Part shown: piece after piece, positions 1,842 through 55,238 of the stretch | How the letters are laid out: each line of letters begins with the position of its first letter | Position numbering within the stretch: the first letter of the stretch is position 1 | Assembly (NCBI GenBank): GCA_949358305.1 | Contig: OX442314.1 | Coordinates: forward strand, 23,932,001 to 23,996,000 | Direction of reading: 5' to 3' | Source of the DNA: Strigamia acuminata | Lineage: Eukaryota | DNA: 64,000 bases | Position numbers and translations under genes: made by a program | Notes under the pieces: generated by a model | The model's database searches: none | Seen by the model: only the letters and a program-made list of their open reading frames with translations | What the model was told of the DNA's origin: nothing

Positions 1842-2684
1842 CTAGGGTTGCCAGGCATCCTGTATTTATCTGTCTTGTTCCAGTGTCTAGTGTTTGAGTG
1901 GCGCCAATATCATAAATAAAATTTATTATCAGCAAAAAAAAAGATTTATTAATTAATTTGTGGAAAAAATTGTTTTCATTGGAAAATAAAATTAATTTTT
2001 AGATGACAGCTTAAAAAATGTTGGGTTAAAATTAAAATGTATGATAAAAAAATTGAATTTTGGAGGTAAAAATTGAATTTTGGAGGTAAAAATTGAATTT
2101 TAGAGGTAAAAATTGAATTTTGGAGGTAAAAATTGAATTTTTGAGGTAAAAATTGAATTTTTGAGGTAAAAATTGAATTTTTGAAGTAAAAATTGAATTT
2201 TTGAGGTAAAAATTGAATTTTTGAGGTAAAAATTGAATTTTTGAGGTAAAAATTGAATTTTTGAGGTAAAAATTGAATTTTTGAGGTAAAAATTGAATTT
2301 TTGAGGTAAAAATTGAATTTTTGAGGTAAAAATTGAATTTTTGAGATAAAAATTGAATTTTTGAGGTAAAAATTGAATTTTTGAGGTAAAAATTGAATTT
2401 TTGAGGTAAAATATTGAATCTTTAATCAAAAAATTTATTTTTTGAGGTAAAAATTGAATTTTTGAGGTAAAAATTGAATTTTTGAGGTAAAAATTGAATT
2501 TTTGAGGTAAAAATTGAATTTTTGAGGTAAAAATTGAATTTTTGAGGTAAAATATTGAATCTTTAATCAAAAAATTTATTTTTTGAGGTGTAAAATTGAA
2601 TTTTGGAAGTAAAAATTAAATTTTTATTTTTATTTTTCCATTTTGTCTGTGCCATTTTACAAATCTAAACACTGGCAACCCTAG
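1842..2684. mobile_element. Non-autonomous TIR element (hAT-like termini) containing a minisatellite
   Basis: Perfect 13-bp inverted termini CTAGGGTTGCCAG (1842-1854) and CTGGCAACCCTAG (2672-2684); no target-site duplication (TSD) seen. Confidence 0.6.
2047..2620. repeat. 20-bp minisatellite (TTGAGGTAAAAATTGAATTT)n
   Basis: About 25 near-identical units; a variant block ATATTGAATCTTTAATCAAAAAATTTATT occurs twice. Confidence 0.95.
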
Positions 2685-39783: not shown

Positions 39784-40118
39784 CCGTCAAATTATTATTT
39801 TTCCTCGTAAATTCGTAATTTCCTTACTGTAACTAAGTTCGGAGGTTTGAGTTTGGTGTAAAATTCGGTAGGGTGGTGGCTACAAGTTAGAAAGTGATAC
39901 GATGTACAGTACAATCAACATTAAAATTGTTATTTAAATTGTTATTAACCTTGGTGTCAAATACAGCATCCAAAGTACCAACAAAAATGGACGATAAGCC
40001 TTTCGTGCCGTGTCCTTTTCGTCTCTGAAGCACTAAAAACGGATTGGCTTGTTCGGTCACCCTCAAACAAATTAAAATTTCAAGTTTTTCCAATATCAGC
40101 TGATCGTGACTGTAATTA
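39784..40118 (-). pseudogene. Genomic duplicate of TBC1D9 exons 2-3 with introns (source ~38917-39239)
   Basis: Near-identical sequence including introns, with small indels; exon 1 absent. Confidence 0.9.
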
Positions 40119-40711
40119 CCGTATATCATCGATTACTACGCGGGCCATTAATAGCCCGCGGACCTTAATTAATACACGGGGTCAAAATAATTTTTGCAAA
40201 TAAGGCGCGGTACCATAATTGTTGTTACGTCTCTGAAACGTAACAATGTAGATACCTGTATACAGGGTGTCCTGCCGAACACCTACCAGGTGAATTATTT
40301 CACAGTTACGTTAATTCAAAAATACTTTTGATTATGAATTAAAGTAAATGACCTGTGACGAATTCAATGAAACATGTTAAATTGATGTGACATTGTTGCA
40401 TCACTGTTTTGCAACTCGTAACTTTTAAACCAACAATGCTACGCAAAAAATGTCAATTGCAAAGTTGTAGAGCGCCTTCTAATTAGTCTAGAACTGTTCT
40501 TAAAAAAATTATCTCTTAACTGAAAAGTTTTGAGCAAAAAAGGTTTGAAATGTTAGTCTACTCAGCTTTATAACCTAATTGGCCGATGCAAGTTTTATAA
40601 TTTTTTCGAAATAAACCGCGGGCCTCATATAGCCCGCGGGCCTCAAATAGAGCGCGGGCCAAAAAGAAATTTTTCTAATAGCGCACGGGTGCGCTATTTA
40701 CAGATATACGG
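40119..40711. mobile_element. 593-bp CCGTATAT-terminated MITE with TA TSD and a nested CAGGGTGTCC mariner-like fragment
   Basis: TA-CCGTATATC ... GATATACGG-TA; the paralogous site at 39231-39245 (CTGTAATTAATTGAT) is empty; subterminal CCGCGGGCC repeats. Confidence 0.9.
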
Positions 40712-40723
40712 TAATTGATTATT

Positions 40724-40940
40724 ATTAAAGAAAAAGTTATGGAATTTTCCCAAAAAAACGTGTAATTACTCAAATTAATAATCACCATCGTGGCCTGCAC
40801 CATCCAGAATGTTATTCGCAATTAAACTCTCGATTTTACATCGAACAAATTCCGTTTGTTTCAGTTTCAGAATTGAATTCATTCAACGTGTATATCATAT
40901 TCGTTTCCAACCAATCCCAGTTTTCCACCACTGTTACGTC
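40724..40940 (-). pseudogene. Duplicate of TBC1D9 ~38643-38845 fused to ~37696-37716
   Basis: Direct sequence identity with a frameshifting indel; junction at shared GTTTTCCA. Confidence 0.85.
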
Positions 40941-41091
40941 ATAATATGGACCAATCAAGAGCGACCAGAATGTTAGGATTTAGTCGCTGATTCGTCCATT
41001 ATTTTTTTTGCGCATGACACCATGCAACATGGGTATAAAGCTTGCGGGAAATTCGAATTCAATGTCACATTTTAATATCGTTAGTGTTATC

Positions 41092-42623: not shown

Positions 42624-44948
42624 TTAAACTGTCCTTTTGCGTTTCTGAATCGTGTTTGGTCCTTCCTCATCGGTAATCTTGCGTTTCCTAGACTTTTTTG
42701 ACGCTGTCTCCTCTTCCCGTTTCACTTCTTCATCACGCATCATTCGTTCCTTCTGTTTCCGTCTCATCGCCTCTCTAATATTCTGCAGTTGCTTTTCTGC
42801 ACACTCAGCTTCTTTTCTCTTCCATTCAAGGACCTCTTCTTTTTTCCGTTCTTGCAGCTTTGCATCACACTCAGCTTGCTTTCTGTTCGATTCGATGATC
42901 TTTCGATTTTTCTCTTCATTCTGCGTCTTCATTTTTTCCAACTGGCGCGCACGTGTGACGTAATAAGTCGCGCGAATTTTAACATCTTTACACTTTTGCA
43001 ACATATTTCGTGCCAAATCAAACAGATTCGGATCTCCGTGAACACTCAAATACTGAAAATCTCTCTCGGCAATCCCCAACTCCTTAACAGCTTTAAGCAC
43101 TGTCGACAATTCCGCCTTTTCAGCCTTCATGGCGCCGCCAGCCATTGTTTCCAACACCACTGCCACATTAAAGCGCAACAAATTGTCTTCGGGAGCAATT
43201 CTCCGAGCTTTCAACAAAGTGGATTTGCAATCCACAAAACTGCCACTCTTGAAATACGCTCTGGCCAAGTACAAAAGAACCTGCACCGAAGACGGTTCCA
43301 ACTCCAAACACTGCTTATACAATTGGATGGCTAAATGGAACTGTTTGTACTGGACGTACATATGCGCTAAATTAATTCGCGCATCAGCAAACTCGGCGGT
43401 GGTTTCCCGAACTAAAAGGAACATTTCGCGCGCTTCCTCTAAGAACCCTTTGTACGCTAAGACACACCCAACGCCATTAGTCGCCCAAGCATTGTCGGGA
43501 TCGTTTTTCAAAGCGTGCTGGTACATTTCAAGCGCTCGATCTTGGTATGTTTTAATTTTGTTTTTATCCACTTTCATGTGCAGCATCCCCAACCACACAT
43601 TGCCCAATGCGATTAAAGCATACGAGTCGTTTTTCCCCTTTGGAATTTTCATTAAAATGCGTTCGTATATGCTTTGAGCCGGTCCTATTTCTAGCTTGGC
43701 AAAATGCATGTTTGCGATTAAAATCCACGCTTCTATATTCTCCTGATCGACGTTCAACGCTTCTTTGAAGTGGAAAGACGCGTCGAAAGTGTCGCCACGA
43801 TCTCTGGCCATGCATCCGAGTCGCAGGTAGCAATCGAGATAATTTGGATGGTCACGTAAAACGCTCTGGTAGCAATTCGTAGCTTTGTCGAACTCTCGCA
43901 AGGCTTCGTAAACTCGCGCTAGGTTGTAAGTGGTTGTTACTGAAATCGCATTGAGCGCTGTTTTGCGCTTCGATATTTCCAACGATCCGACGTAGCATTT
44001 TTCTGCAGCTTTGAAATCGCCCAATCGGAATAACAATACGGCGATATTGTTTAATATTTCTGGCTGAACTTCGTCGCGGACATCTTTCTCAATGGCTTTT
44101 CTGTAAGCGTACAATGCCGTGTCAATGTCTTTGTTTTGGGTAAGTTGCGCTAATTCGATCCAAGCTTCTACGTCGTCGGGACGTATTGCGGTGATTTGAT
44201 TTAGACGTTTTATCGCTATTTCGCGTTTCTCTTGATCCGGCGATTTGGCGTACAACGAGGCGAGGATTTTCATCGCTTCGTAATTGTCGGGTTTTGATTT
44301 CAGAACGGTTTCGAAACATTTAGCCGCGTTTTCAAAATCGCCTTTTTGGATGTAGATTTTACCCAATCCGAAAAATGGTAGAACGAACTGCGAAGAAGCT
44401 AACTGAGTCGATTGGTGATAATATTTAAATGCTTGTTCGAAATCCTTTAAAACGTGAAACACTCGTCCCAACTGATAGCAACTTTCGGCTTTGATTGCTT
44501 TGTTTTCGGTTTGCATGGCGCGAAGAGCTAAAACTTGCACGTTTTGATAATCCTTTTGATTAAAGTAATGATTAGCCAAGTGGTTAAGAGTGATTGGATT
44601 CGCTGCATCAATCGCGTAGGCTTTCGATAAGAGTTGGACTCCACAACGAATCGATTCTGGCGTATTTAAATTGATGTACACGACAGATAGTGCTACTAAA
44701 GCCTCCACGCAACGCGGATGGTGGACGAGAGCTTGTTCGAATGCTTGTCGCGCGTTTGAGGGGTCGTTTAGTTTTGCGAAACAATGTCCTACCCCTAGAA
44801 GAACTGCAGCTTTGTGAGAGCCGGAAACGTGGGTTCGTAAAACTGCTTGGTAGAGTCTCAATGCTTGAGCGAAATCGTTTTTACTAAATGCAATGCAAGC
44901 TCTGTTTAAAGTTGACGGCATGGCACGAGTTGCAGCAACTGATTCCAT
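42624..44948 (-). CDS. CTR9: Intronless, terminally truncated CTR9 (PAF1 complex TPR subunit) paralog, 774 aa
   Basis: GVQLLSKAYAID..NP..LNHLANHYF, AESCYQLGR.FH, AFKYYHQSTQ.A...FVLPFFGLG, ISVTTTYNLAR, HPNYLDCYLRLGCMARDRG and NAWATNGVGCVLA; TATAAAA ~40 bp upstream; TATCGATA (DRE) at 45087-45094. Confidence 0.88.
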   Translation of the reverse strand: MESVAATRAMPSTLNRACIAFSKNDFAQALRLYQAVLRTHVSGSHKAAVLLGVGHCFAKLNDPSNARQAFEQALVHHPRCVEALVALSVVYINLNTPESIRCGVQLLSKAYAIDAANPITLNHLANHYFNQKDYQNVQVLALRAMQTENKAIKAESCYQLGRVFHVLKDFEQAFKYYHQSTQLASSQFVLPFFGLGKIYIQKGDFENAAKCFETVLKSKPDNYEAMKILASLYAKSPDQEKREIAIKRLNQITAIRPDDVEAWIELAQLTQNKDIDTALYAYRKAIEKDVRDEVQPEILNNIAVLLFRLGDFKAAEKCYVGSLEISKRKTALNAISVTTTYNLARVYEALREFDKATNCYQSVLRDHPNYLDCYLRLGCMARDRGDTFDASFHFKEALNVDQENIEAWILIANMHFAKLEIGPAQSIYERILMKIPKGKNDSYALIALGNVWLGMLHMKVDKNKIKTYQDRALEMYQHALKNDPDNAWATNGVGCVLAYKGFLEEAREMFLLVRETTAEFADARINLAHMYVQYKQFHLAIQLYKQCLELEPSSVQVLLYLARAYFKSGSFVDCKSTLLKARRIAPEDNLLRFNVAVVLETMAGGAMKAEKAELSTVLKAVKELGIAERDFQYLSVHGDPNLFDLARNMLQKCKDVKIRATYYVTRARQLEKMKTQNEEKNRKIIESNRKQAECDAKLQERKKEEVLEWKRKEAECAEKQLQNIREAMRRKQKERMMRDEEVKREEETASKKSRKRKITDEEGPNTIQKRKRTV

Positions 44949-45586
44949 TTCAATTCGTTTGGCAAATTTTAGCGGCTAGTGGTGACTTTTTATACGGTAG
45001 CTCAGAATAACGTAGACGTTGCTAAGCTCGCGAATTCGAGTTGTGATGAGTTTCTAATCACGTTCCTTCTTTTTATATTAAATGGATATCGATAACGTCA
45101 ACGATACGTAATTCATATAACGTACGGTCTACTTTGCGCAATTTCATGTAACGTTTGGTTTACGTTGCGTAATTTCAGGATGAAATAAGTGAAACCCACT
45201 TGTATCTTTTAGGAAGATTTTAAACAAAACAAACTGAGACGAAAAATTTGAAATATTGCATGATTATGGAAATTGGAAATTGACTCGCACACTTTGCAAT
45301 TTTATTTTCTAAGAATTTTATTTTATTTTTTAGCTTTTTAAATGTTATTTAATAAAAAGAAATTTAAGAACTGAGTTTCTTCTTGGAGTTTTTCCCTGGT
45401 GGTGTCATTCATTTCTGGCTGAATTTGAAACCAATTGTTTAGAGCCGCCATGACTGAATTGCGACAACCCTATATTGTCACATCGGAGAGTAGCAGTTAG
45501 ATTAACTACAGAATGGTATCTAAAAATATAAAGTATTACACCTATAAAATAGTAATGTATAATATTTTGATTATTTTATTCTAGAA

Positions 45587-46122: not shown

Positions 46123-46803
46123 CTTATAAAAATAAATTCAAGTGCTGAGCTCTCTGCATGCCCTTTTAGCCGATACAAAGGCCGATCTTAGACTGGAACA
46201 GTTTGGACAGTAACATTCTGTAATCAAGCGCATTATGCTACAATTAACTGCAGCATCTGCATCCGGTGACGATTATTAAGGAAAATTGTAATAGCGCTTT
46301 TGATATTAAAGTTAGGAGATAGGACAATTTCTTTATCTTTTTATGGTAAATATCACAAGTTTTTCTTGGTTTGTGACACTAGAGAAGCGAGGGACTCGTG
46401 TTTGTTTTTCAGACCTTTGCAATGGAATAACCATAAATTGAATATTTTGCTAAGTTATGACACAAAATATGAATTATATAAAGAGGCAATAAATGTTGTT
46501 TAACTATTGGCTTGTCCAATTAATTTAATATTTACTAGTACTTAAAAGAAAAACCAGGTGGAGGGCTTGACCTCTACTTATGGTCTAGCCCGAGACCTGA
46601 CCCCCAGTCCAATTTTAAGGAACTGAGGAATAAAACAAGTAGTTTCAGAAATAAAACTTTATTTACTGAAAACATCAAGGAGAGGTGACGGATCGACTTT
46701 ATTGGCGATCTGAAAATACAATAAAAAACCATAAACAAATGTTGTTAGGGTGGTCAAGATATCTATCAACCAAAAACATAAAATCCAAATGAGGGTGGGA
46801 AAT

Positions 46804-46904
46804 AACAACATTTATTGCCTCTTTATATAATTCATATTTTGTGTCATAACTTAGCAAAATATTCAATTATATTACAGCATAGGCAATAAATGTTGTTTAA
46901 CTAT
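46804..46904. repeat. DIRS internal complementary region (ICR)
   Basis: Reverse complement of 46436-46500 joined through CAATT to the reverse complement of ~51604-51644; overlaps the YR stop codon. Confidence 0.95.
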
Positions 46905-47872
46905 AGGCTCTTCGTAGCCTCTAAAACAGTAGAAGTAAAATCAGTCGAAATTCTCTCGACTGGATGATTATAAAATTTGAAAAATATCGAGGCAGAGGAC
47001 CAATCTGCCGCTCGAAGGATGTGAGATAAATTAACTCCTTTTGACCAAGCAAAGGAAGTGGCGGCTGCACGGGTAGAATGGGCCGAAAAAATAGCAGTGT
47101 TTACTCCTGCCATGGACAAGGTTTCCTTGATCCACCTGGCAATAGTGGAAGAAGTGACCGGTCCAAAAGGACGTGAGGACGCCAAAAAGAATTGAAGAGA
47201 GGATCCGCGAAAAGCGGCTGAGTGTTTTAAATAAAATTTAATGGCCTCGACCGGACATAATTCCTCGTCCTCGAAACGGGGTAGAACGAAAGGGACTGTA
47301 GAGGAGGATTTTCTCTTTCCTAGGAGAGGAAAAACACAAGAGTTAGCTGAAAAAACTACTTTGGATGATAAGAGTTTGAGATCTGAAGCCCTTCCTGCTA
47401 AGGAAAGGGCCAAGAGTGTGGCGATATGACGATTAATCTCTAACTTGGAGAAGGTAGGAAGTAAAAGAAACCGTGACTTAAGGAAGAGAAGAACCGGGCC
47501 TACATGCCAAATGGAGGAATATTTCGGAATTTGTGGACGCGAATTTGCGATGCCTTTCATGACGCGCCTGATAAGTGGGTGAGAACCTAGATCAATTGAA
47601 GAAATTAAACTGATGGTCTGAGAAATAGCCGAACGATGGGCATTTATTGTGCTAAGCGCAAAATTATCAGTAAAAAGAGAAGAAAGGTAATTTGCCAACT
47701 TTATGGCAGATGGGCGAACAGGGTCAACATTGTTTCGTGTAGACCAGTGGAGCCAAGACTTCCAGTGTCCGTCGTAGATCTTATTTGATGAGGACTGCCA
47801 GGAACACCCCACCAATTTGGAAGCGTTCGTTGAAAGACCTCCGTTTCCGAGGGAACCGATGACAGTTTCCAT
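46901..47872 (-). CDS. DIRS tyrosine recombinase
   Basis: SAM-like N-domain (TINAHRSAIS, HPLIRRVMKG); catalytic R (GRASDL), LCPV, HSTR, ADW and FFKFY. Confidence 0.95.
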   Translation of the reverse strand: METVIGSLGNGGLSTNASKLVGCSWQSSSNKIYDGHWKSWLHWSTRNNVDPVRPSAIKLANYLSSLFTDNFALSTINAHRSAISQTISLISSIDLGSHPLIRRVMKGIANSRPQIPKYSSIWHVGPVLLFLKSRFLLLPTFSKLEINRHIATLLALSLAGRASDLKLLSSKVVFSANSCVFPLLGKRKSSSTVPFVLPRFEDEELCPVEAIKFYLKHSAAFRGSSLQFFLASSRPFGPVTSSTIARWIKETLSMAGVNTAIFSAHSTRAAATSFAWSKGVNLSHILRAADWSSASIFFKFYNHPVERISTDFTSTVLEATKSL

Positions 47873-50157
47873 GCGGCCAGCTGCAGGGATCGCGCTAGGA
47901 GAAGCGGATGGGGTTGTTTCAGCGCATTCGTCAAAAGATTCGGGAGTTGGGGCAACCGTATCGGGGATTCCGTCGATAGGGACCAGAGAAGCTGAAAAAT
48001 AAATCTCGATTTAGTAGAAAGAAAAGAACAAATTTCCTGAATGTGGAATTACCGGAAACCAAGCTTGGCTAGGCCAAATCGGGGTGATCAGAACTATTCG
48101 AGTAGGTGTCGAAGCATTGCGGATTTTTTGAAGGCATTTTGGAACGAGGCAAAAAGGAGGAAAAGCGTAAGAAATTCCTGATCCCCAGTCCTGAACTAAG
48201 GCATCAAAGGCCTGAGCAGCAGGGTCGGGCTTCCAGCTAAAGAAGTTTTCTAATTGCGCATTATGCATTGCCGCGAAAAGGTCTAAATAAAAGGGACCCC
48301 AAATTTGATCAATGGAGTGAAAGACCTTATGATTCAACATCCAGTCACCTGAGTCTACGATCTTACCCCTAGAGGCCGCGTCCGCTTCTATATTGAGGCG
48401 ACCCGGGATGTGCTCCGCTTGAACAGAGATATTCCTTTCCATAGCCCAAGACCAAAGGTCTTGTGCTACGGCAGTAAGGTCTCGGGATCTGGGGCTGCCC
48501 AGATGATTAATGGAGGCAATCGCTGCAGTATTGTCCATTCTAATCTTAACTATACTATCGGATAAATCCTTAGCAAAAGACTTGAGACCCCAAAATGCAG
48601 CTAAAAGTTCAAGAACATTGATATGTTTCTTAACAAGGGGAGAGGGCCAGGAGCCTCCTATACTAACGCCTGAAGAAGTTGCCCCCCATCCTGTTAGGGA
48701 GGCATCGGAATCAAGGCATAAGAGACAAGGTTTAGGAAGAAGAGATCTGCCCTTGCAAAATCTCAAATTTTGTTTCCACCATAAAAGCTCTGACCTAGCT
48801 TCTTCTGTTATAAAACATGTGGATTCATAATTTCCGGTGAAATTACGGGCTTTTAAATGTTGCAGTCCCCGGTAATGTAGGGGCGCAGAGGAAATGGCAA
48901 TTGTTGTGGCGTTAAGTTTGCCGATAATAGAAGACAGTTCTCGTATAGAACAGGTTTCTGATTGAAGCAAGTCTTCGAGGGAGGAAAGAATATTCTGAAC
49001 TCTGTCTGGTGGCAAGGAGACGCTCATAGAAACTGAATCAATTAGAAAGCCTAAAAAGGTAATCGAAGTAGTGGGCTCAAGGATCGATTTTTTCAAATTA
49101 ATGATAAAACCCAGAGCGCGAAAAAGAAGGCAAACAAAATCCCTCTGTCGTGTAAGAAGTTCGTGAGATTTATTTATAAAAAACCAATCGTCTAAATAGA
49201 CTGCTAACCGAACGTAAAGAGATCGAAGGAAAGTTGCTACAGCTCTACACAATTTTGTAAAGTAAAAGGGAGCGGGACCTAAACCAAAGGGAAGCACTCC
49301 TAGTTCATACAGAACACCTTCCCAGAAAAATCTCAAAAATTTTCGAGATTCTGGGTGTATGGCCACCGAAAAATAGGCATCAGATAGATCCAGTTTAAAC
49401 ATAAAAGCGTCTTTCTCCACCAGAGACAAGGCGGTGTGAATATTCTCCATTTTGAAATGGTTGAAAACCAAAAAGGAATTGAGGGGTTTAAGATTAATAA
49501 TAGGCCGAAAACCGCCATCTTTTTTAGAAACTAGAAAAAGAAAACTAATTATTTGATCTTGGCAAGGAAGAACCGAATAAGCGGCCCCTTTAAGGATCAT
49601 GGCCTTAACCTCCTCCCTGATTAGTTCATGTTTAATCTGATCGAAAACTGGTGTACGAAATTCTGATTGAATAGGTGGACTTAAAAATTCCAATTTTATC
49701 CCTCTGACCGTATCAAGAACCCAAGAATCTGAGGTGATAAAGGACCAAGTGTCGTGACAAAGGGGTAAACGTCCAGATGAAAGACAGGCGTCAGGAAAGG
49801 AAAAGTGGCTACACCAAGCCGTTACCGTTTCTAGTGAAGCCGCCACGACCCCTTCCCCGGTTGCTGGGGAAGGGGTTTTTACGAAAGGGCTGTTGCTGCC
49901 CTTTGTTGTAATCCGGGTTACGAAAGCTTCTACTCTGATCTCTGTCGTCCGGTCGTGTGTGGGAATAATCTCTGCGCTGAAAACTCTCGACGGGGCGACT
50001 AAAACCACGGCGGAATCGATTATCGCGACGAGGACCCTTCGCGGGATTTTTACTTCTCGCTCTGTCCACTGATGCGAATTGGTCGGCTTGCTTTTCTGCA
50101 AGGAAAAACAATAAGTTGTAAGACTCTTAAATTTTTTGTATCGAAAATATGGGTTAC
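47701..50157 (-). CDS. DIRS pol: reverse transcriptase, RNase H and methyltransferase-like domain; interrupted by intron 47992-48052
   Basis: KKDGGFRPIINLKPLN, KLDLSDAYFSV, LPFGL, YLDD; SDAS..GWG, HINVLEL, DN, NIEADAASR; DLFA, YAFPPF; WFP|LLWSL...HPL...LQLAAWKLS after splicing. Confidence 0.93.
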
Positions 50158-51396
50158 TGAATCTCTCAAAAAATTGCCCTTGAAAAAGAGTGTCTCCCTC
50201 CGAATTTCGAAAATGCTTCACCATGTCGGACTTCTTCGTACCCAAACCTTGAACGACATTGAAACGTCGTTCGTCGCTAATTGCGTTCATAGCATTTCGA
50301 ACTTGTTGAAAAATGGCTTTGTTGGCGTAAAGCAATTCGTCTTTGTTCATGGGGTCGTTTGTTGACGAACGATCGTAGATTCTTGCCGTAATCGACCCAA
50401 CGCGCGCCATCATGCCGTTTAAGCGACGCAAAAAACGTTCTCGCGGAATGGAAAAGGACGTGTTTCGTGCCCCCACATAGGCCTCCACATCTTCGTCCAT
50501 TTTCTTCTTTTTCAAAAAGGGAACCTGTCGAGTCGGGCACGGAAAATCGGCCTTAAAACTGTTATTTTTGGCCGTCGAAACTGGTTTGCTCAAAATTCGA
50601 ACTATTTCCTTGGCGGACGATTCGTGGAGAAAAGGCGCATCTTCTTCGAGATCATCGGAGTCGTCCGACGATCGGTCGGATTCCTCGTCCTTTCGAGACG
50701 GCGATTTTCGCGATTTGGCGTGCGGTTTGTCTCTTTTCTCGAGTTCTCGTCGGAGACGTATAATTTCACGGTCCTTACGAGACAGTCTTGCGGAAAATTC
50801 TCGCTCATCGTCTGACGAGCTAGAGCGTGACGAACGGTCGGAATCATACTCTGAAACATCTGACTACAACCAGTCAGTAACAAGAGTGAGAATTTTATCT
50901 ACAATTCCGCATGAGAATTACTTACTTGATTTTCAGACTGAAATGTGCCCCACTCGTCTCTACGAGATCGAGACATTTTTGGCAATTCGGTAGACCCCTC
51001 CCGCTGAAGAGGGGCCCCACCTGTCTGATTCTGCGAGAAAGCCATAAAGATGAGCTTCTCGATGGCCTGGGAAGAAAGTCCCAAGTCGGGCGCCTGACTA
51101 TTCGCGACTTGCGAGGCGGTAAAGTCGGGCCCTCTCGGATCCCGTACATCATCGTTTCCAAAAGATTCGTCAAGGCGTTCTATCGTTTCATCTGATGGTG
51201 TGGGAACGATGGAACCATCTAATAGGATCCTCGATTGGGACGAGGAAGGCGGCGCGATGGGCTCGTGGTGAGTTTCAACACGCGTGGTGGTGGTGATAGG
51301 CTTAGTGGTGTTGGTGCGACCACGCGGTGGTCGTGCTCTTTTGGAGCTTAAAGAGTCATCTGCTGTCTTCTTACCTCTAACTTTAGTAGGGCTCAT
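49809..51396 (-). CDS. DIRS gag-like ORF in three exons (51396-50926, 50863-50158, 50095-49809), 487 aa
   Basis: Two 62-nt GT-AG introns; the spliced frame is open and ends in an RG-rich tail (RGRGRGGFTRNGNGLV*). Confidence 0.8.
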
Positions 51397-51712
51397 CGTA
51401 AAAGGTAGTCAAAGTGCAAAAAAGCGATATAAAACTAAAAAATAGCCAAAATTTTCTTGAACGCGAAAAATCACGTGTGGAGAACTTGGCTAGTAAAATT
51501 GGACTGGGGGTCAGGTCTCGGGCTAGACCATAAGTAGAGGTCAAGCCCTCCACCTGGTTTTTCTTTTAAGTACTAGTAAATATTAAATTAATTGGACAAG
51601 CCAATAGTTAAACAACATTTATTGCCTATGCTGTAATATAATTGTATAATGCACATTTAAATCTTTAAAGATGTTGATTTTGACATACACAAGATTTATG
51701 GTATGCTGCCGA

Positions 51713-53195
51713 AATTAAATACCGGGAGATTAAATGACAACTGTGTTACATTGATCGATTTGTGACAACTTATTTTATTTAGAATCAAAAGACACTTTAT
51801 GTAGTCAAATGGTGCGCTAATCCATTAATGAGGCTCGAAAAGATGATCCTTCATCCAACAAAACCACAGTATACTGTGAACAAAACGTATCTTAATGTCT
51901 TTTTGACTGCGGGGATATGATGTTGGCACGTATTTGTGGAACTGTTTGGAAAGATTGTGGCAAGAATTGGAGGTTTTTATTCGGAATGCGAGATGCAACT
52001 GTGAAGATAGTTTGGCTCTGATGGATGTAAGACACATGTTTTGGCAACATGCAGCGAAACGTGCCTTGCTGTGTATAATTTGATGACAAAGCACATTTGT
52101 AGTGACCATAAGTAGGATCAGCGAGAAGAACAAACAACATTCAAACGATGTCGGGGTTACGAATATAAACAACATTTAAATGCGCGACGTCGCGCATTTC
52201 AATAGTGGTGACATTCTACACGCGAACGCACGCGTCGCGTGTATGAATATCGCGCGCAATATGGATCACCAATTAATGGATGACAGATGAAGATGTCAGA
52301 AGTTTTTGTTGTAATAGATTTACAGGCGCCAATGTTGCCATTGACCTCAAGAGAAATTAGGGACACCATGTTGAGGACAATGCGGGAGGAGGAATGGAAA
52401 CACAAGAAGTTACTGACCTGTACGACCACCAATGAGAGACACTTTACTAATCCTCAGCCTGTATAAAGACTCACTTTTTAACGAATTAAAACACTTGTCA
52501 ACTTTTTCACTGTCAAACGTGTGTTCTCATTTCTTGAATATACAACATTTGTGTGTTTAAACAAGTTCAATTACTGGCTTTTAATGTGGTGCATAGCGTA
52601 ATTGCAAATTTGGTTTATTAGATTTAACATTTAAAATCTTATTCAGTTTTTAATTCGTGTTAGAACTCTGAAGGATTACGATTTGTTAAAGTGCAAGGGC
52701 GTCTGAGAATACTGGATAATTTTTTTTCCTTATTTATGTGTGAAATTTGAAATGAACGATTTCTTCGGAAGTTTACACGATTTCTAAAAGACTCTCCTTA
52801 ACCAATTTTATTTTTTCTCTTCTATTTAAAAGTAAAAATTTCTGACTTGATGGTTTATATACCGTACTGCAGAAATTGTGTTTATTAACTCACCTAAAGT
52901 ATCTACATAGAAATGCACTTGCAAAGATTGCAAGTGCAACTATAAATATTTTTTTAAAATGTTTTCATTCACTCTAATCAATATATCTCAAACTTCTTGT
53001 ACTGAAATTTAACTATTTAATTAACGTAGTACAAAAAAAAATTCATATAAGTTTTGTTGAATGAAGGATCATCCTTTCGAGCCTCATTAATGGATTAGCG
53101 CACCATTTGACTACATAAATGATTCTAAATAAAATAAGTTGTCACAAATCGATCAATGCGTACACACTAGTCATTTACTCTCCCGATATTTAATT
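51713..53195. mobile_element. Foldback element with ~150-bp inverted arms
   Basis: 51713-51864 is the reverse complement of 53051-53195 with few differences; no TSD or transposase ORF recognised. Confidence 0.7.
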
Positions 53196-53508
53196 AAAAC
53201 TACACTTTCTTTAAGAAAATATCAGCAGCACAAATCTTGTGTATGTAAAAATAAATAATCTTCAAAGTTTCGTTGAAGTAGCACATTCTTTGTAATGTAC
53301 GTAGTTTGATGGATGGTTTGAAAGGTGTTTATGGGTTTATGGGCAATCAGAGTTGCAATTAGTGGCCACTTCCGGTCAATTGGCGCTTGTCTCCAGGGAG
53401 ACAAGTCTGCCAATTGGTCCAATCCGTGATTGGACAAGAAAGATATTCTAGACCGGAAATGAAAGTGGGCCACAAGATTTTGCAACACTTCTGCAGCTAC
53501 GATAGAGA

Positions 53509-53566
53509 CATCGAGTCGCATCCAGTCGCATCCAGTCGCATCGAGTCGCATCCAGTCGCATCCAGT
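53509..53566. repeat. 10-bp tandem repeat CATC(G/C)AGTCG, ~5.5 copies
   Basis: Direct inspection. Confidence 0.9.
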
Positions 53567-53912
53567 AATTCCCGGACATTTTTCCTTCTTTGGCCACGCG
53601 GCCAAGAATGATTAAAAACGGCGATTCATCAATCAACGCAGTTACCACGTTCCGCGAAGGAGAATCGATCGCCAAAACGACGTTTTCACGTGCGCATTTC
53701 GAACAGGATTTTCTCGACGAATGCTGTTAAACCATCACGTGGATCGGGATTCCAAATTGTGAAATCCAACGAGAAGAATTAGTGCTCAACTGTAAGTTCC
53801 CTTGCTTTTTAGTCTTACGTTATTGTTACTTTTTAAATAATGCATCATTTCCTTCGTCTCTCAATCATGTCTAGGACATACGTCACGGTGAATAATCGCC
53901 ACAGTTCTCAAG

Positions 53913-55238
53913 ATGCCGCGCAGCAAATCAGCATCGAGACTGGAACAATTGTGTTTTGAAATAGTTTGCACCAATGTTGATAGATTAGAAACACAACTAG
54001 TGAATCTACCTTCTATCTTTATGTCGCGCGTGTATCAACGTATAGATCCGCAATTTTACCGGGAAGATAGACGCATATCTTCAAAGGCTTTTGTTCGCCC
54101 TGGCACCAAGTCGATTCATCATCCTGATATGTTTCATTTGCCCATGTATCCTTCTCTATTAGATAGAGTAGGACGACTTGGTGGAAACCTTTTACATTTA
54201 GACCTGGCCAGTAAGACTGATGTAAAAATACCACCTGAATACATGGTCAAACTACTGGGGCAATTGCCACAACTTCAATGGTTTCTTTTTGGAGGTTATA
54301 CGGAAGAATGCACTGAAGAAGTTATCGTTGCAATTGGTGAAAATTGTCTACAATTGCGACATCTAGAGTTAATGAACCGCAAAAAGGTTACGGATGATGT
54401 GCTTTATCATTTAAGAAATTGCAAAAAATTGGAGCATTTTGATGTCTCGTACACTAGCGTCACGTTGCAGGGATGTCTTTTTATTTTCAATCAACTGCCT
54501 CTTTTGAGAAGGTTTGTACATAATTGGTGGGAAATATTTTTTAATCAGTTAAAACAACAGTTCGTGTCGGAGGAAAAGGTGCGCACTTATTCCATCGAAA
54601 CAACTGGCTTTCAAGCAAGTATAAAAAATATTGAAGATTTCATCACTGTGACCACCATTTTCCCCAACTTATCTCGCCTAAAGGTGGATGCATCGGTAGC
54701 ATTGACTACTTTAGATTTGAATATTGTCTTGGCACGGGCACAACGATTGATCAGCTTACAACTCTCTCATTTTAAATTAGTTGATCTTAAACTTGTTGAT
54801 TATTATTGCCCATTGTTACAAATATTACATTTGGATGCTTGCACTATTTTGGACACTGCTGCACATGATTTAGCTCCGCAAAATTTGTTCAGAAACCTAC
54901 GTTTAGTAGGCATACATGCGGATGAATATGGTTTTACTGAATCACAGATGTTAGTCTTATTAACTCAGAATTTAGAATATTTATCTATTAGAAATTGTCA
55001 AACACTCACTGACAAGTTTATTTTAAAACTAGGTGAATTGTATGCAGTTAAAGGTTTGGCATTTTGTTCATGCCCCTCAATTAATCAAAGCATGATAATC
55101 AAGTTAGTAGAAATGAGAAATCCTATGGAGCGTTTAATAATACGACATTGTTTGAATATAGATTTGTCGGTTTCAGAAGAAATTGCCACTTATGTTAAAT
55201 CTAAGAACTTGAGTTTGGAACTATATTGGCGCCTATAA
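53913..55238 (+). CDS. LRR protein (FBXL/AMN1-like repeats) with an N-terminal BC-box-like motif; single coding exon
   Basis: 441-aa ORF; SRLEQLCFEIV N-terminal motif; LRRs such as IGENCLQLRHLEL...KVTD, CKKLEHFDVSYTSVT and LEYLSIRNCQTLTD; candidate 5'UTR intron 53792-53874. Confidence 0.75.
   Translation: MPRSKSASRLEQLCFEIVCTNVDRLETQLVNLPSIFMSRVYQRIDPQFYREDRRISSKAFVRPGTKSIHHPDMFHLPMYPSLLDRVGRLGGNLLHLDLASKTDVKIPPEYMVKLLGQLPQLQWFLFGGYTEECTEEVIVAIGENCLQLRHLELMNRKKVTDDVLYHLRNCKKLEHFDVSYTSVTLQGCLFIFNQLPLLRRFVHNWWEIFFNQLKQQFVSEEKVRTYSIETTGFQASIKNIEDFITVTTIFPNLSRLKVDASVALTTLDLNIVLARAQRLISLQLSHFKLVDLKLVDYYCPLLQILHLDACTILDTAAHDLAPQNLFRNLRLVGIHADEYGFTESQMLVLLTQNLEYLSIRNCQTLTDKFILKLGELYAVKGLAFCSCPSINQSMIIKLVEMRNPMERLIIRHCLNIDLSVSEEIATYVKSKNLSLELYWRL

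Follow-up and report, generated by a model that had tools for sequence, protein, structure and literature searches.

How can an element that is copied through RNA keep spliceosomal introns in its genes? Reverse transcription is the standard explanation of intron loss, and in PMC8557442 retention is seen as a peculiarity of Penelope-like elements. The question is raised by a DIRS1-like retrotransposon in the stretch of 64,000 nucleotides that was analysed (the window), in which three GT-AG segments of host-intron size interrupt gag and pol (Table 1). We consider it quite probable that this element was recently mobile, that the three segments, which stay in the DNA of its family, are true spliceosomal introns gained in its lineage, and that its proteins come from spliced mRNAs and its new copies from unspliced RNA.

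Table 1. Features of the element in window coordinates.
Feature	Position	Strand	Remarks
Whole DIRS1-like retrotransposon	46436..51644	(-)	CAATT at each end; single CAATT in the empty allele
Left terminus (inverted terminal repeat, ITR)	51494..51643	(-)	outer end matches left half of ICR
Gag exon 1	50926..51396	(-)	157 codons from ATG 51396; basic, low complexity
Candidate donor D0 (predicted)	51366..51377	(-)	GT at 51374; top-ranked donor; 7 codons past gag ATG
Intron 1	50864..50925	(-)	62 nt, phase 0; each of the three frames has stops; same in X2 record 11
Gag exon 2	50158..50863	(-)	ends just past LFG-x-x-F-like Gag motif; possibly skippable, weak sites on each side
Intron 2	50096..50157	(-)	62 nt, phase 1; other copies measure 61 or about 72 nt
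Gag exon 3	49809..50095	(-)	basic RG-rich tail; purifying selection in post-splice frame; overlaps open pol frame
Candidate donor D4 (predicted)	49817..49828	(-)	GT at 49825; at gag end
Pol	48053..49808	(-)	RT, RNase H, Dam-like methylase; without usable ATG
Intron 3	47992..48052	(-)	61 nt, phase 0 for pol; for the recombinase frame the acceptor has phase 1
Pol last exon	47701..47991	(-)	end of methylase domain; overlaps recombinase frame
Tyrosine recombinase frame	46901..47991	(-)	PF00589, 1e-06; own ATG 47872, 323 aa
Internal complementary region (ICR)	46804..46909	(-)	halves meet on AATT circular junction
Top-ranked acceptor 46710 and candidate fourth intron (predicted)	46663..46777	(-)	CCCTAAC branch-like motif; 3' of ICR
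Right ITR (46484-46617) and right extension (46436-46483)	46436..46617	(-)	repeat pairing

The sequence-only reading had described an intact DIRS1 retrotransposon, and both this identity and the boundaries given for it proved correct: inverted termini, ICR, RT-RNase H-methylase and tyrosine recombinase are all present. The 134-nt ITR arms are 100% complementary (134/134) and a 50-nt arm 96%. The ICR matches the element's 3' end at 65/65 positions and is complementary to both outer ends, overlapping at the short AATT circular junction. This junction is also the insertion target; the empty allele, seen where contigs from runs X1, X2 and X3 join 46435 to 51640, holds one copy of the CAATT that stands at both ends when the site is filled. 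Pfam matches were obtained to RT (PF00078, 1.7e-15), the Dam-like methylase (PF05869, 2.8e-09) and the tyrosine recombinase; no further family, DDE integrase and protease included, reached threshold in the five frames scanned. In pol, YLDD lies at 49198, DLFA at 48283 and AFPPF at 48166, and the RNase H catalytic residues, assigned by motif only, are D 48706, E, D 48538 and D 48385; the recombinase sites are R (47395 region), HSTR (47080), W (47008 region) and Y (46981 region). PAT-like and Ngaro features were not found, as the termini are inverted instead of split direct repeats and a methylase is present, which Ngaro elements do not have. Repeat and Pfam scans of the element gave no GIY-YIG endonuclease and no pseudo-LTRs, the features of Penelope-like elements. 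In the contigs several different flanks are seen at both element ends, and the site is still polymorphic, with a filled and an empty allele. The host is a centipede-like animal in which the element was likely mobile until recently, and the intact RT together with the matching termini points to replication through RNA and cDNA.

The three segments were found on the minus strand where they had been proposed, each with GT..AG ends. Their sizes agree, as had been suggested, with the short introns of the host, of which 15 out of 18 are 56-83 nt long, and within the coding span their A+T content ranks at percentiles 89, 98 and 98. Comparison of the intron ends with the end of the preceding exon gave no repeat (3, 6 and 7 of 20 letters). 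Unspliced RNA would stop after 165 codons. With intron 1 removed, the frame from ATG 51396 runs past the stop at 50899 and the broken gag ORFs are joined, as the sequence-only reading had it. The Gag N-terminus is of low complexity, and the support for intron 1, the most tentative of the three, consists of its stops in all frames, the in-frame join, a TACTGAC branch-like motif and a donor that is 4th of 231 GT in a splice-site model trained on 18 host introns only. Counting against the introns, this model gives the intron-1 acceptor a moderate rank, 29th of 290 AG, and the intron-2 donor a weak one, 123rd of 231 GT.

For introns 2 and 3, every possible deletion was scored with homolog profiles, blind to splice signals. 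The GT..AG cut of intron 3 ranked 4th of 6,436 deletions with 115.0 bits (best 115.2; no deletion 65.7), and the top 12 deletions were all 61 nt long. The GT..AG cut of intron 2 ranked 3rd of 7,921, with 25.7 bits (best 26.2; no deletion 16.5). A Gag profile of 22 relatives aligns across the join of the spliced frame to residue 146 (25.9 bits), and the same profile halts on the unspliced sequence at the intron edge, residue 112 (16.7 bits). The claim that removal of intron 3 restores the end of the methylase domain was borne out: HPL and LxAW then stand at offsets 37 and 47 from PxW, which are the modal offsets in homologs (HPL 37 in 50/68, LxAW-type 47 in 47/103; PxW motif in 114/120 matches). 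Removal makes the protein collinear with homologs for introns 2 and 3; intron 1 is judged by frame.

The relatives behind these deletion scans are intronless. The Pol of 94 relative loci, 79 of them covering at least 400 aa, has no frame-breaking insertion, and inspection by eye of 50 such loci that carry the methylase motif showed no insertion at the intron-3 site. The nearest proteins are 47% identical, and a fast tree, which leaves out L027, groups the element with P0001 and the tick gene model P0030. A metagenome scan with a single Pol as query gave no relative. A search with Gag exon 2 among 1.84 billion representatives returned one match of 133 aa, and a search for short Pol fragments nothing above 50% identity, so that neither yielded the spliced protein of a close relative. 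Three host ORFs searched for as exact matches gave none.

Sibling copies were read through Logan contigs from four runs (X6 gave almost nothing; X1 and X2 belong to one study and may be the source of the window itself). Intron 2 is ungapped in X1 record 4 (depth 2483), intron 1 in X2 record 11 (depth 999) and intron 3 in X2 record 8 (depth 1034, with just 30 letters on the far side), and empty-site contigs have depths of 239 and 98 for comparison. Among the joints listed in the four runs none skips any of the three introns; contigs lose rare variants, so rare intronless copies may exist. The interior of intron 2 varies while its acceptor is kept. In a subfamily of ~90% identity all 10 gap letters fall within intron 2, which becomes ~72 nt, one near-identical contig has it shorter by 1 nt, and in three subfamilies the alignment breaks off at 50108, 50101 and 50097, on the intron-2 acceptor or slightly inside it. 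The subfamily contigs lose alignment across intron 1, and the ends of introns 1 and 3 lie outside what they read. Downstream of intron 2, the changed codons of the gag tail, read in the post-splice frame, are silent in 12/20, 11/23 and 10/13 cases, above the 26% expected (40 of 69 differences listed), which shows purifying selection on this frame. That sibling copies keep the introns is thus upheld by deep family contigs for all three segments and by diverged subfamilies for intron 2; the segments are kept in the DNA of the family and are not copy-specific decay. Based on the DNA, their splicing is likely.

Another question is how the three proteins would be made. The sequence-only reading held that splicing is needed for them, which stands for Gag, as removal of introns 1 and 2 gives a Gag of 487 aa with its stop at 49809, and falls short for Pol. 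A fully spliced RNA ends at Gag and has no usable Pol start (the first ATG of the pol frame, 49600, is inside RT), so that alternative splicing or recoding would be required, not one splice-all switch. The idea in that reading of host splicing as an on/off control is speculative. Gag may come from RNA with introns 1 and 2 out, and Pol would need its own entry to the pol frame, somewhere upstream of 49807. Our first choice for Pol would be an RNA that omits exon 2, with donor 1 joined to acceptor 2 and intron 3 out, giving 934 aa, and a +1 frameshift or another acceptor are live alternatives. The recombinase, whose frame is in frame with the intron-3 acceptor, may be reached through that acceptor from a phase-1 donor or start at its own ATG. 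This frame is open from acceptor 3 to its ATG (P=0.12), a weak hint, and the open pol frame over the gag tail is uninformative, because it is expected by chance (P=0.70); no amino-acid constraint was found there.

From the predicted sites, D0 joined to the intron-3 acceptor would be in frame with the recombinase (370 aa), and D4 with the same acceptor would give a Gag-recombinase of 845 aa. A candidate fourth intron may run from 46770 or 46777 to 46710 (61 or 68 nt), and two AATAAA, at 46703 and at 46663, precede the right ITR. The earlier reading of three introns omitted both the top acceptor 46710 and the top donor 51374. The relatives lend no clear support to a strong 3' acceptor (sense above antisense in 11/17, window included) or to a phase match of a gag-end donor and a methylase-end acceptor (1/4 and 2/7; 16 loci scored). 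Two further joins were rejected: donor 2 to acceptor 49864 looks good by eye yet is 244th of 290 in the host-intron model, and a short intron from D4 into Pol finds no AG before the GRL motif, the pol frame looking coding from 49807.

GT..AG pairs of 55-85 nt are common in the element (405), and the three segments could be copy-specific insertions, decay or assembly error with such ends by chance. Yet the deepest contigs carry the segments without change, the cuts that homology favours fall on GT..AG, and the rest of the element is intact and still polymorphic; as far as the DNA goes this is refuted, and we give it hardly any credence. Retroelements commonly recode, and it is also highly improbable that the segments are not spliced and serve as sites of ribosomal frameshift, hop or read-through. 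A +1 shift in the gag tail is possible for Pol alone, but stop codons close every frame of intron 1, intron 2 comes in three length classes modulo 3 between identical flanks, and restoring the domain spacing takes the complete loss of intron 3.

If the introns are real, the family might still multiply at the DNA level, by excision and reinsertion through its recombinase as proposed for Cryptons, which carry introns, or by duplication. Retention would then be explained without RNA sorting, a tyrosine recombinase is encoded, and intron-rich Crypton variants are mentioned in a passage of PMC13465315. We consider this unlikely, as the RT, RNase H and methylase motifs are intact, the perfect matches of the ITR arms and of the ICR with the 3' end are expected if each RT cycle restores the termini using the ICR, a subfamily shows, by eye, conservation of the pol frame at third positions just past the gag stop, and several flanks speak against tandem duplication. 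It is very unlikely, too, that intron 2 is a Copia-like switch, its splicing giving Gag and its retention a Gag-Pol read-through. In the window the pol frame stays open through intron 2, and keeping intron 2 with introns 1 and 3 out gives 1190 aa; its donor is weak, and alternative splicing separates Gag from the full-length RNA in Ty1/Copia (PMC5580714). Against a conserved switch, both the ~72-nt form of one subfamily and the 61-nt form, which rests on one contig, lose the pol frame.

Similar systems help to place true introns in this element. Goodwin and Poulter are said to have described, in 2004, intron-bearing YR retrotransposons in fungi or algae, which likewise have spliceosomal introns within an element of the DIRS order; the present element differs in being of DIRS1 type, from an arthropod and with population and subfamily evidence. 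Retroviruses, through subgenomic splicing, use spliced RNAs for protein and unspliced RNA as genome. Penelope-like elements insert by target priming. According to PMC8557442, they also retain spliceosomal introns after retrotransposition, yet they have a different RT clade, an endonuclease and pseudo-LTRs, none of which is a feature of the centipede element. Ty1/Copia elements such as Arabidopsis EVD make a spliced Gag mRNA (PMC5580714), with spliced RNAs for protein and unspliced RNA as the genome, and the way splicing is coupled with early termination offers a model of the 3' acceptor and AATAAA seen here. However, their one regulated splice removes coding sequence and the unspliced RNA still codes Gag-Pol, whereas the introns here are non-coding and host-like, in a DIRS1-like element without LTRs, protease or DDE integrase. 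With the DIRS1-like elements of PMC3266345 and PMC9210276 it shares ITRs, right extension, a two-part ICR with circular junction, ATT-type ends, a size of ~5.2 kb, the gag, RT-RH-MT and YR genes and, once the introns are removed, a +2 frame relative to pol for both the gag tail and YR. What sets it apart are the three short introns that interrupt its gag and pol. Four surveys use the word 'intron' 0 times in their main text, element annotations in the supplements of PMC3266345 or in Repbase could mention introns, and no prior report of an intron-bearing animal DIRS1 element was found in the literature searched.

In Dictyostelium, DIRS-1 was engineered with an artificial intron, and PMC7192593 reports an RNA intermediate, a required ICR, an RT that works in trans and, with the intron placed close to the 5' end, unspliced cDNA. 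The artificial intron was lost in new copies, under selection for its removal, whereas here natural introns persist across copies and subfamilies; an as yet unexplained filter must therefore favour unspliced RNA in this family. The earlier proposal of copying from unspliced RNA would hold if the family replicates like DIRS-1. In such a cycle the proteins would act in trans on unspliced full-length RNA; its reverse transcript would then be made circular by way of the ICR and enter an AATT target. A more tentative view, which we regard as possible but doubtful, is that this animal DIRS1 lineage is an alternatively spliced unit like a host gene, with Gag, Pol and recombinase made by separate splice paths (exon-2 inclusion, exon-2 skipping and a long splice to the intron-3 acceptor); spliced RNAs would be directed to a 3' terminal exon with polyadenylation ahead of the right ITR, and might lose the ICR junction as well, so that only unspliced RNA would be copied. 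If true, that filter would let a retrotransposon gain and transmit ordinary introns. Three or four 60-nt introns, inherited in a polymorphic DIRS1 family of an animal and missing from its relatives, would be a case of natural intron gain in a retroelement, and this case matters for how DIRS elements express their start-less pol and recombinase frames and choose the RNA to copy.

By every structural test that we ran, the element (46436..51644, minus strand) belongs to the DIRS1-like group, as the sequence-only reading held in calling it an intact DIRS1. Its inverted terminal repeats (ITRs) match perfectly over 134 nt, with a right extension beside them, and it carries a two-part internal complementary region (ICR). 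Pfam matches in its frames are to reverse transcriptase (RT, 1.7e-15), to a Dam-like methylase (2.8e-09) and, for the recombinase, to the phage-integrase family (1e-06); catalytic motifs are present, and the layout is that of the DIRS1-like definition in the accessible part of PMC3266345. The closest Pol homolog, the best of 120 listed, is 47% identical, and a fast tree places the element, at support 99, with P0001, a listed Pol homolog, and with a gene model from a tick. The element stands just beyond an inverted-repeat pair that is likely a non-autonomous DNA transposon. Elsewhere in the window, the repeated codon unit is likely a satellite and the two intronless frames are possibly retrogenes, the longer having what we take to be a TPR-like appearance.

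Features of the element and its surroundings in the window
Feature	Position	Strand	Details
Intron 1	50925-50864	(-)	62 nt, GT..AG
Intron 2	50157-50096	(-)	62 nt, GT..AG
Intron 3	48052-47992	(-)	61 nt, GT..AG
Two-part ICR	46804-46909	(-)	halves join on AATT
Long inverted repeat arms	51659-51864 and 53051-53270		69 nt at 97%, 39 nt at 100%; ~1.2-1.5 kb separation; adjoin element
Tandem array	53499-53576		10-nt unit, ~6 copies
Long frames of repeated unit	1979-2615		~21-codon AT-rich unit
Two long intronless frames	42627-44975 and 53892-55235		783 aa and 448 aa; either side of insertion, region otherwise intron-rich

The coordinates, lengths and GT..AG ends first proposed for the three introns proved exact, and so did their match in size to the host's short introns, which measure 56-83 nt in 15 of the 18 that we mapped with Strigamia protein. 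Introns 1-3 are 65-72% A+T, against 54.5% across the element's coding span. A splice-site model trained on those 18 host introns ranked donors 3, 1 and 2 as 2nd, 4th and 123rd of the element's 231 candidates, and acceptors 2, 3 and 1 as 7th, 9th and 29th of 290. One host exon shares 89% identity with Strigamia maritima TBC1D9, and the fused Strigamia TBC1D9 gene model maps over 30-39 kb of the window, which makes a centipede the likely host; upstream of the main gene, at 39829-40958, extra matches to the TBC1D9 N-terminus, one of them frame-broken, form a partial duplication.

Since the element holds as many as 405 GT..AG pairs spaced 55-85 nt apart, introns 2 and 3 were tested by homology. 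The methylase-end motif occurs in 114 of the 120 listed Pol homologs, and once intron 3 is taken out the element shows the spacing most frequent among them (HPL at 37 in 50/68, LxAW-type at 47 in 47/103); in a splice-blind deletion scan the GT..AG cut came 4th of 6,436, the top 12 cuts all being of 61 nt. The earlier claim that this removal restores the methylase end is borne out. For intron 2 the GT..AG cut came 3rd of 7,921, and the match to a Gag profile of 22 relatives, chosen by their LFG motif, ends at the intron edge when unspliced and continues past the join when spliced. At the DNA level the case for introns 2 and 3 is strong, and that for intron 1 is fair; we consider the intron-bearing element a real feature, its splicing being predicted from DNA.

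Inheritance of the introns is demonstrated at the level of contigs. Sibling copies were read in contigs of three runs (two from one study, one from another; no run is recorded as RNA), where both element ends lead into several dissimilar flanks and an empty allele joins 46435 directly to 51640. The sequence-only reading had proposed looking for the introns in such copies: X1 and X2 contigs (both runs of one study) about 10x deeper than the empty-site contig carry each of introns 1-3 unaltered, though depth gives just an approximate measure and the contig with intron 3 extends 30 letters past the donor; among the joints listed for four runs, none skips an intron. In one subfamily, some 90% alike, all 10 gap letters fall within intron 2, a near-identical contig has intron 2 one base shorter, and alignment to three subfamilies breaks off at 50108, 50101 and 50097. 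In a selection count of 40/69 differences, allotted to subfamilies by depth, synonymous codons in the post-splice Gag frame numbered 12/20, 11/23 and 10/13 by subfamily (26% expected); the same differences read in the pol frame gave 4/22, 4/24 and 0/12, with no enrichment. On this evidence intron 2 acts as an old non-coding spacer separating two Gag exons.

Among relatives, an insertion at the intron-3 site was seen by eye in 0/50 loci, and a frame-breaking insertion of 35-400 nt in Pol in 0/94, of which 79 cover at least 400 aa; in the tblastn alignments, 4/94 (L019, L044, L045, L069) carry in-frame Pol inserts 36-93 nt long that the query lacks. Gain of the introns in the element's own lineage is the simplest reading. 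Fourteen DIRS-like Pol matches (L081-L094) lie on bacterial or archaeal MAG contigs, some longer than 1.5 Mb (L081, L087), and are likely eukaryotic contamination or mis-assembly. Introns are reportedly mentioned in non-animal tyrosine recombinase elements by Goodwin and Poulter (2004). Full-text literature searching, judged on titles and abstract openings, returned no report of natural introns in animal DIRS1; the word "intron" is absent from the accessible main text of PMC3266345, PMC3783388, PMC9210276 and PMC6681497, and the portions seen of PMC5718144, PMC13465315, PMC5890265, PMC12477816 and PMC3212892 hold nothing on them. Judging from the available portions of the sources, the element shares intron retention with Penelope-like elements but is not one of them (PMC8557442), and resembles Ty1/Copia and retroviruses in spliced and unspliced expression but belongs to neither (PMC5580714).

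Without splicing, the frame that starts at the gag ATG (51396) runs for 165 codons to a stop; unspliced RNA gives no Gag, Pol or recombinase from this ATG, so the proteins would require spliced mRNAs. Gag would come from RNA with introns 1 and 2 removed (487 aa), and removal of all three again yields just 487 aa because the Gag stop sits at 49809. How, then, is Pol reached? The earliest ATG in the pol frame 3' of intron 2 (49600) is within RT. One subfamily retains pol-frame residues directly past the gag stop, with 6/9 changes at third positions (by eye), so that entry must lie upstream of 49807. Joining donor 1 to acceptor 2 would omit exon 2 (50158..50863), which is flanked by the two weak sites, acceptor 1 and donor 2, and give 934 aa; we tentatively place this skipping foremost. 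A phase-0 donor of any kind joined to acceptor 2 leads into the pol frame; entry by another acceptor or donor seems rather unlikely, and a +1 frameshift equally so. Retention of intron 2 with introns 1 and 3 removed gives 1190 aa; it keeps the pol frame only at 62 nt, the 61- and 72-nt forms failing, and is improbable, while some other route is very improbable.

The recombinase frame begins open at intron 3, and acceptor 3 is joined in frame by phase-1 donors at 51374 (370 aa), 50157 (755 aa) and 49825 (845 aa), each phase match having a prior of one in three and the recombinase also having its own ATG. The best donor within the 200 nt upstream of the Pol start exceeds all pol control windows in 20/39 relatives (about 1/8 expected), and in several intronless DIRS1 relatives a gag-end GTATG gives a pol-frame ATG. 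This donor-like site may serve DIRS1 elements in general as a signal for expression; a donor/acceptor phase test in relatives left the idea unsupported. Loci of relatives in which a strong donor-like site precedes the Pol GRL motif by 30-180 nt include L001, L005, L013, L017, L029, L032, L034, L044, L055 and L072, among others.

The acceptor that the host model ranks first in the element, 46710, is situated 3' of the ICR. A branch-like motif accompanies it, and two AATAAA occur ahead of the right ITR. Spliced RNAs, were they to terminate in this region, would be without the right ITR and hence uncopyable, a candidate filter favouring unspliced RNA. For DIRS-1, the accessible part of PMC7192593 describes a need for the ICR, RT acting in trans and unspliced cDNA, and by this analogy a division between mRNA and copied template would be plausible for the element.
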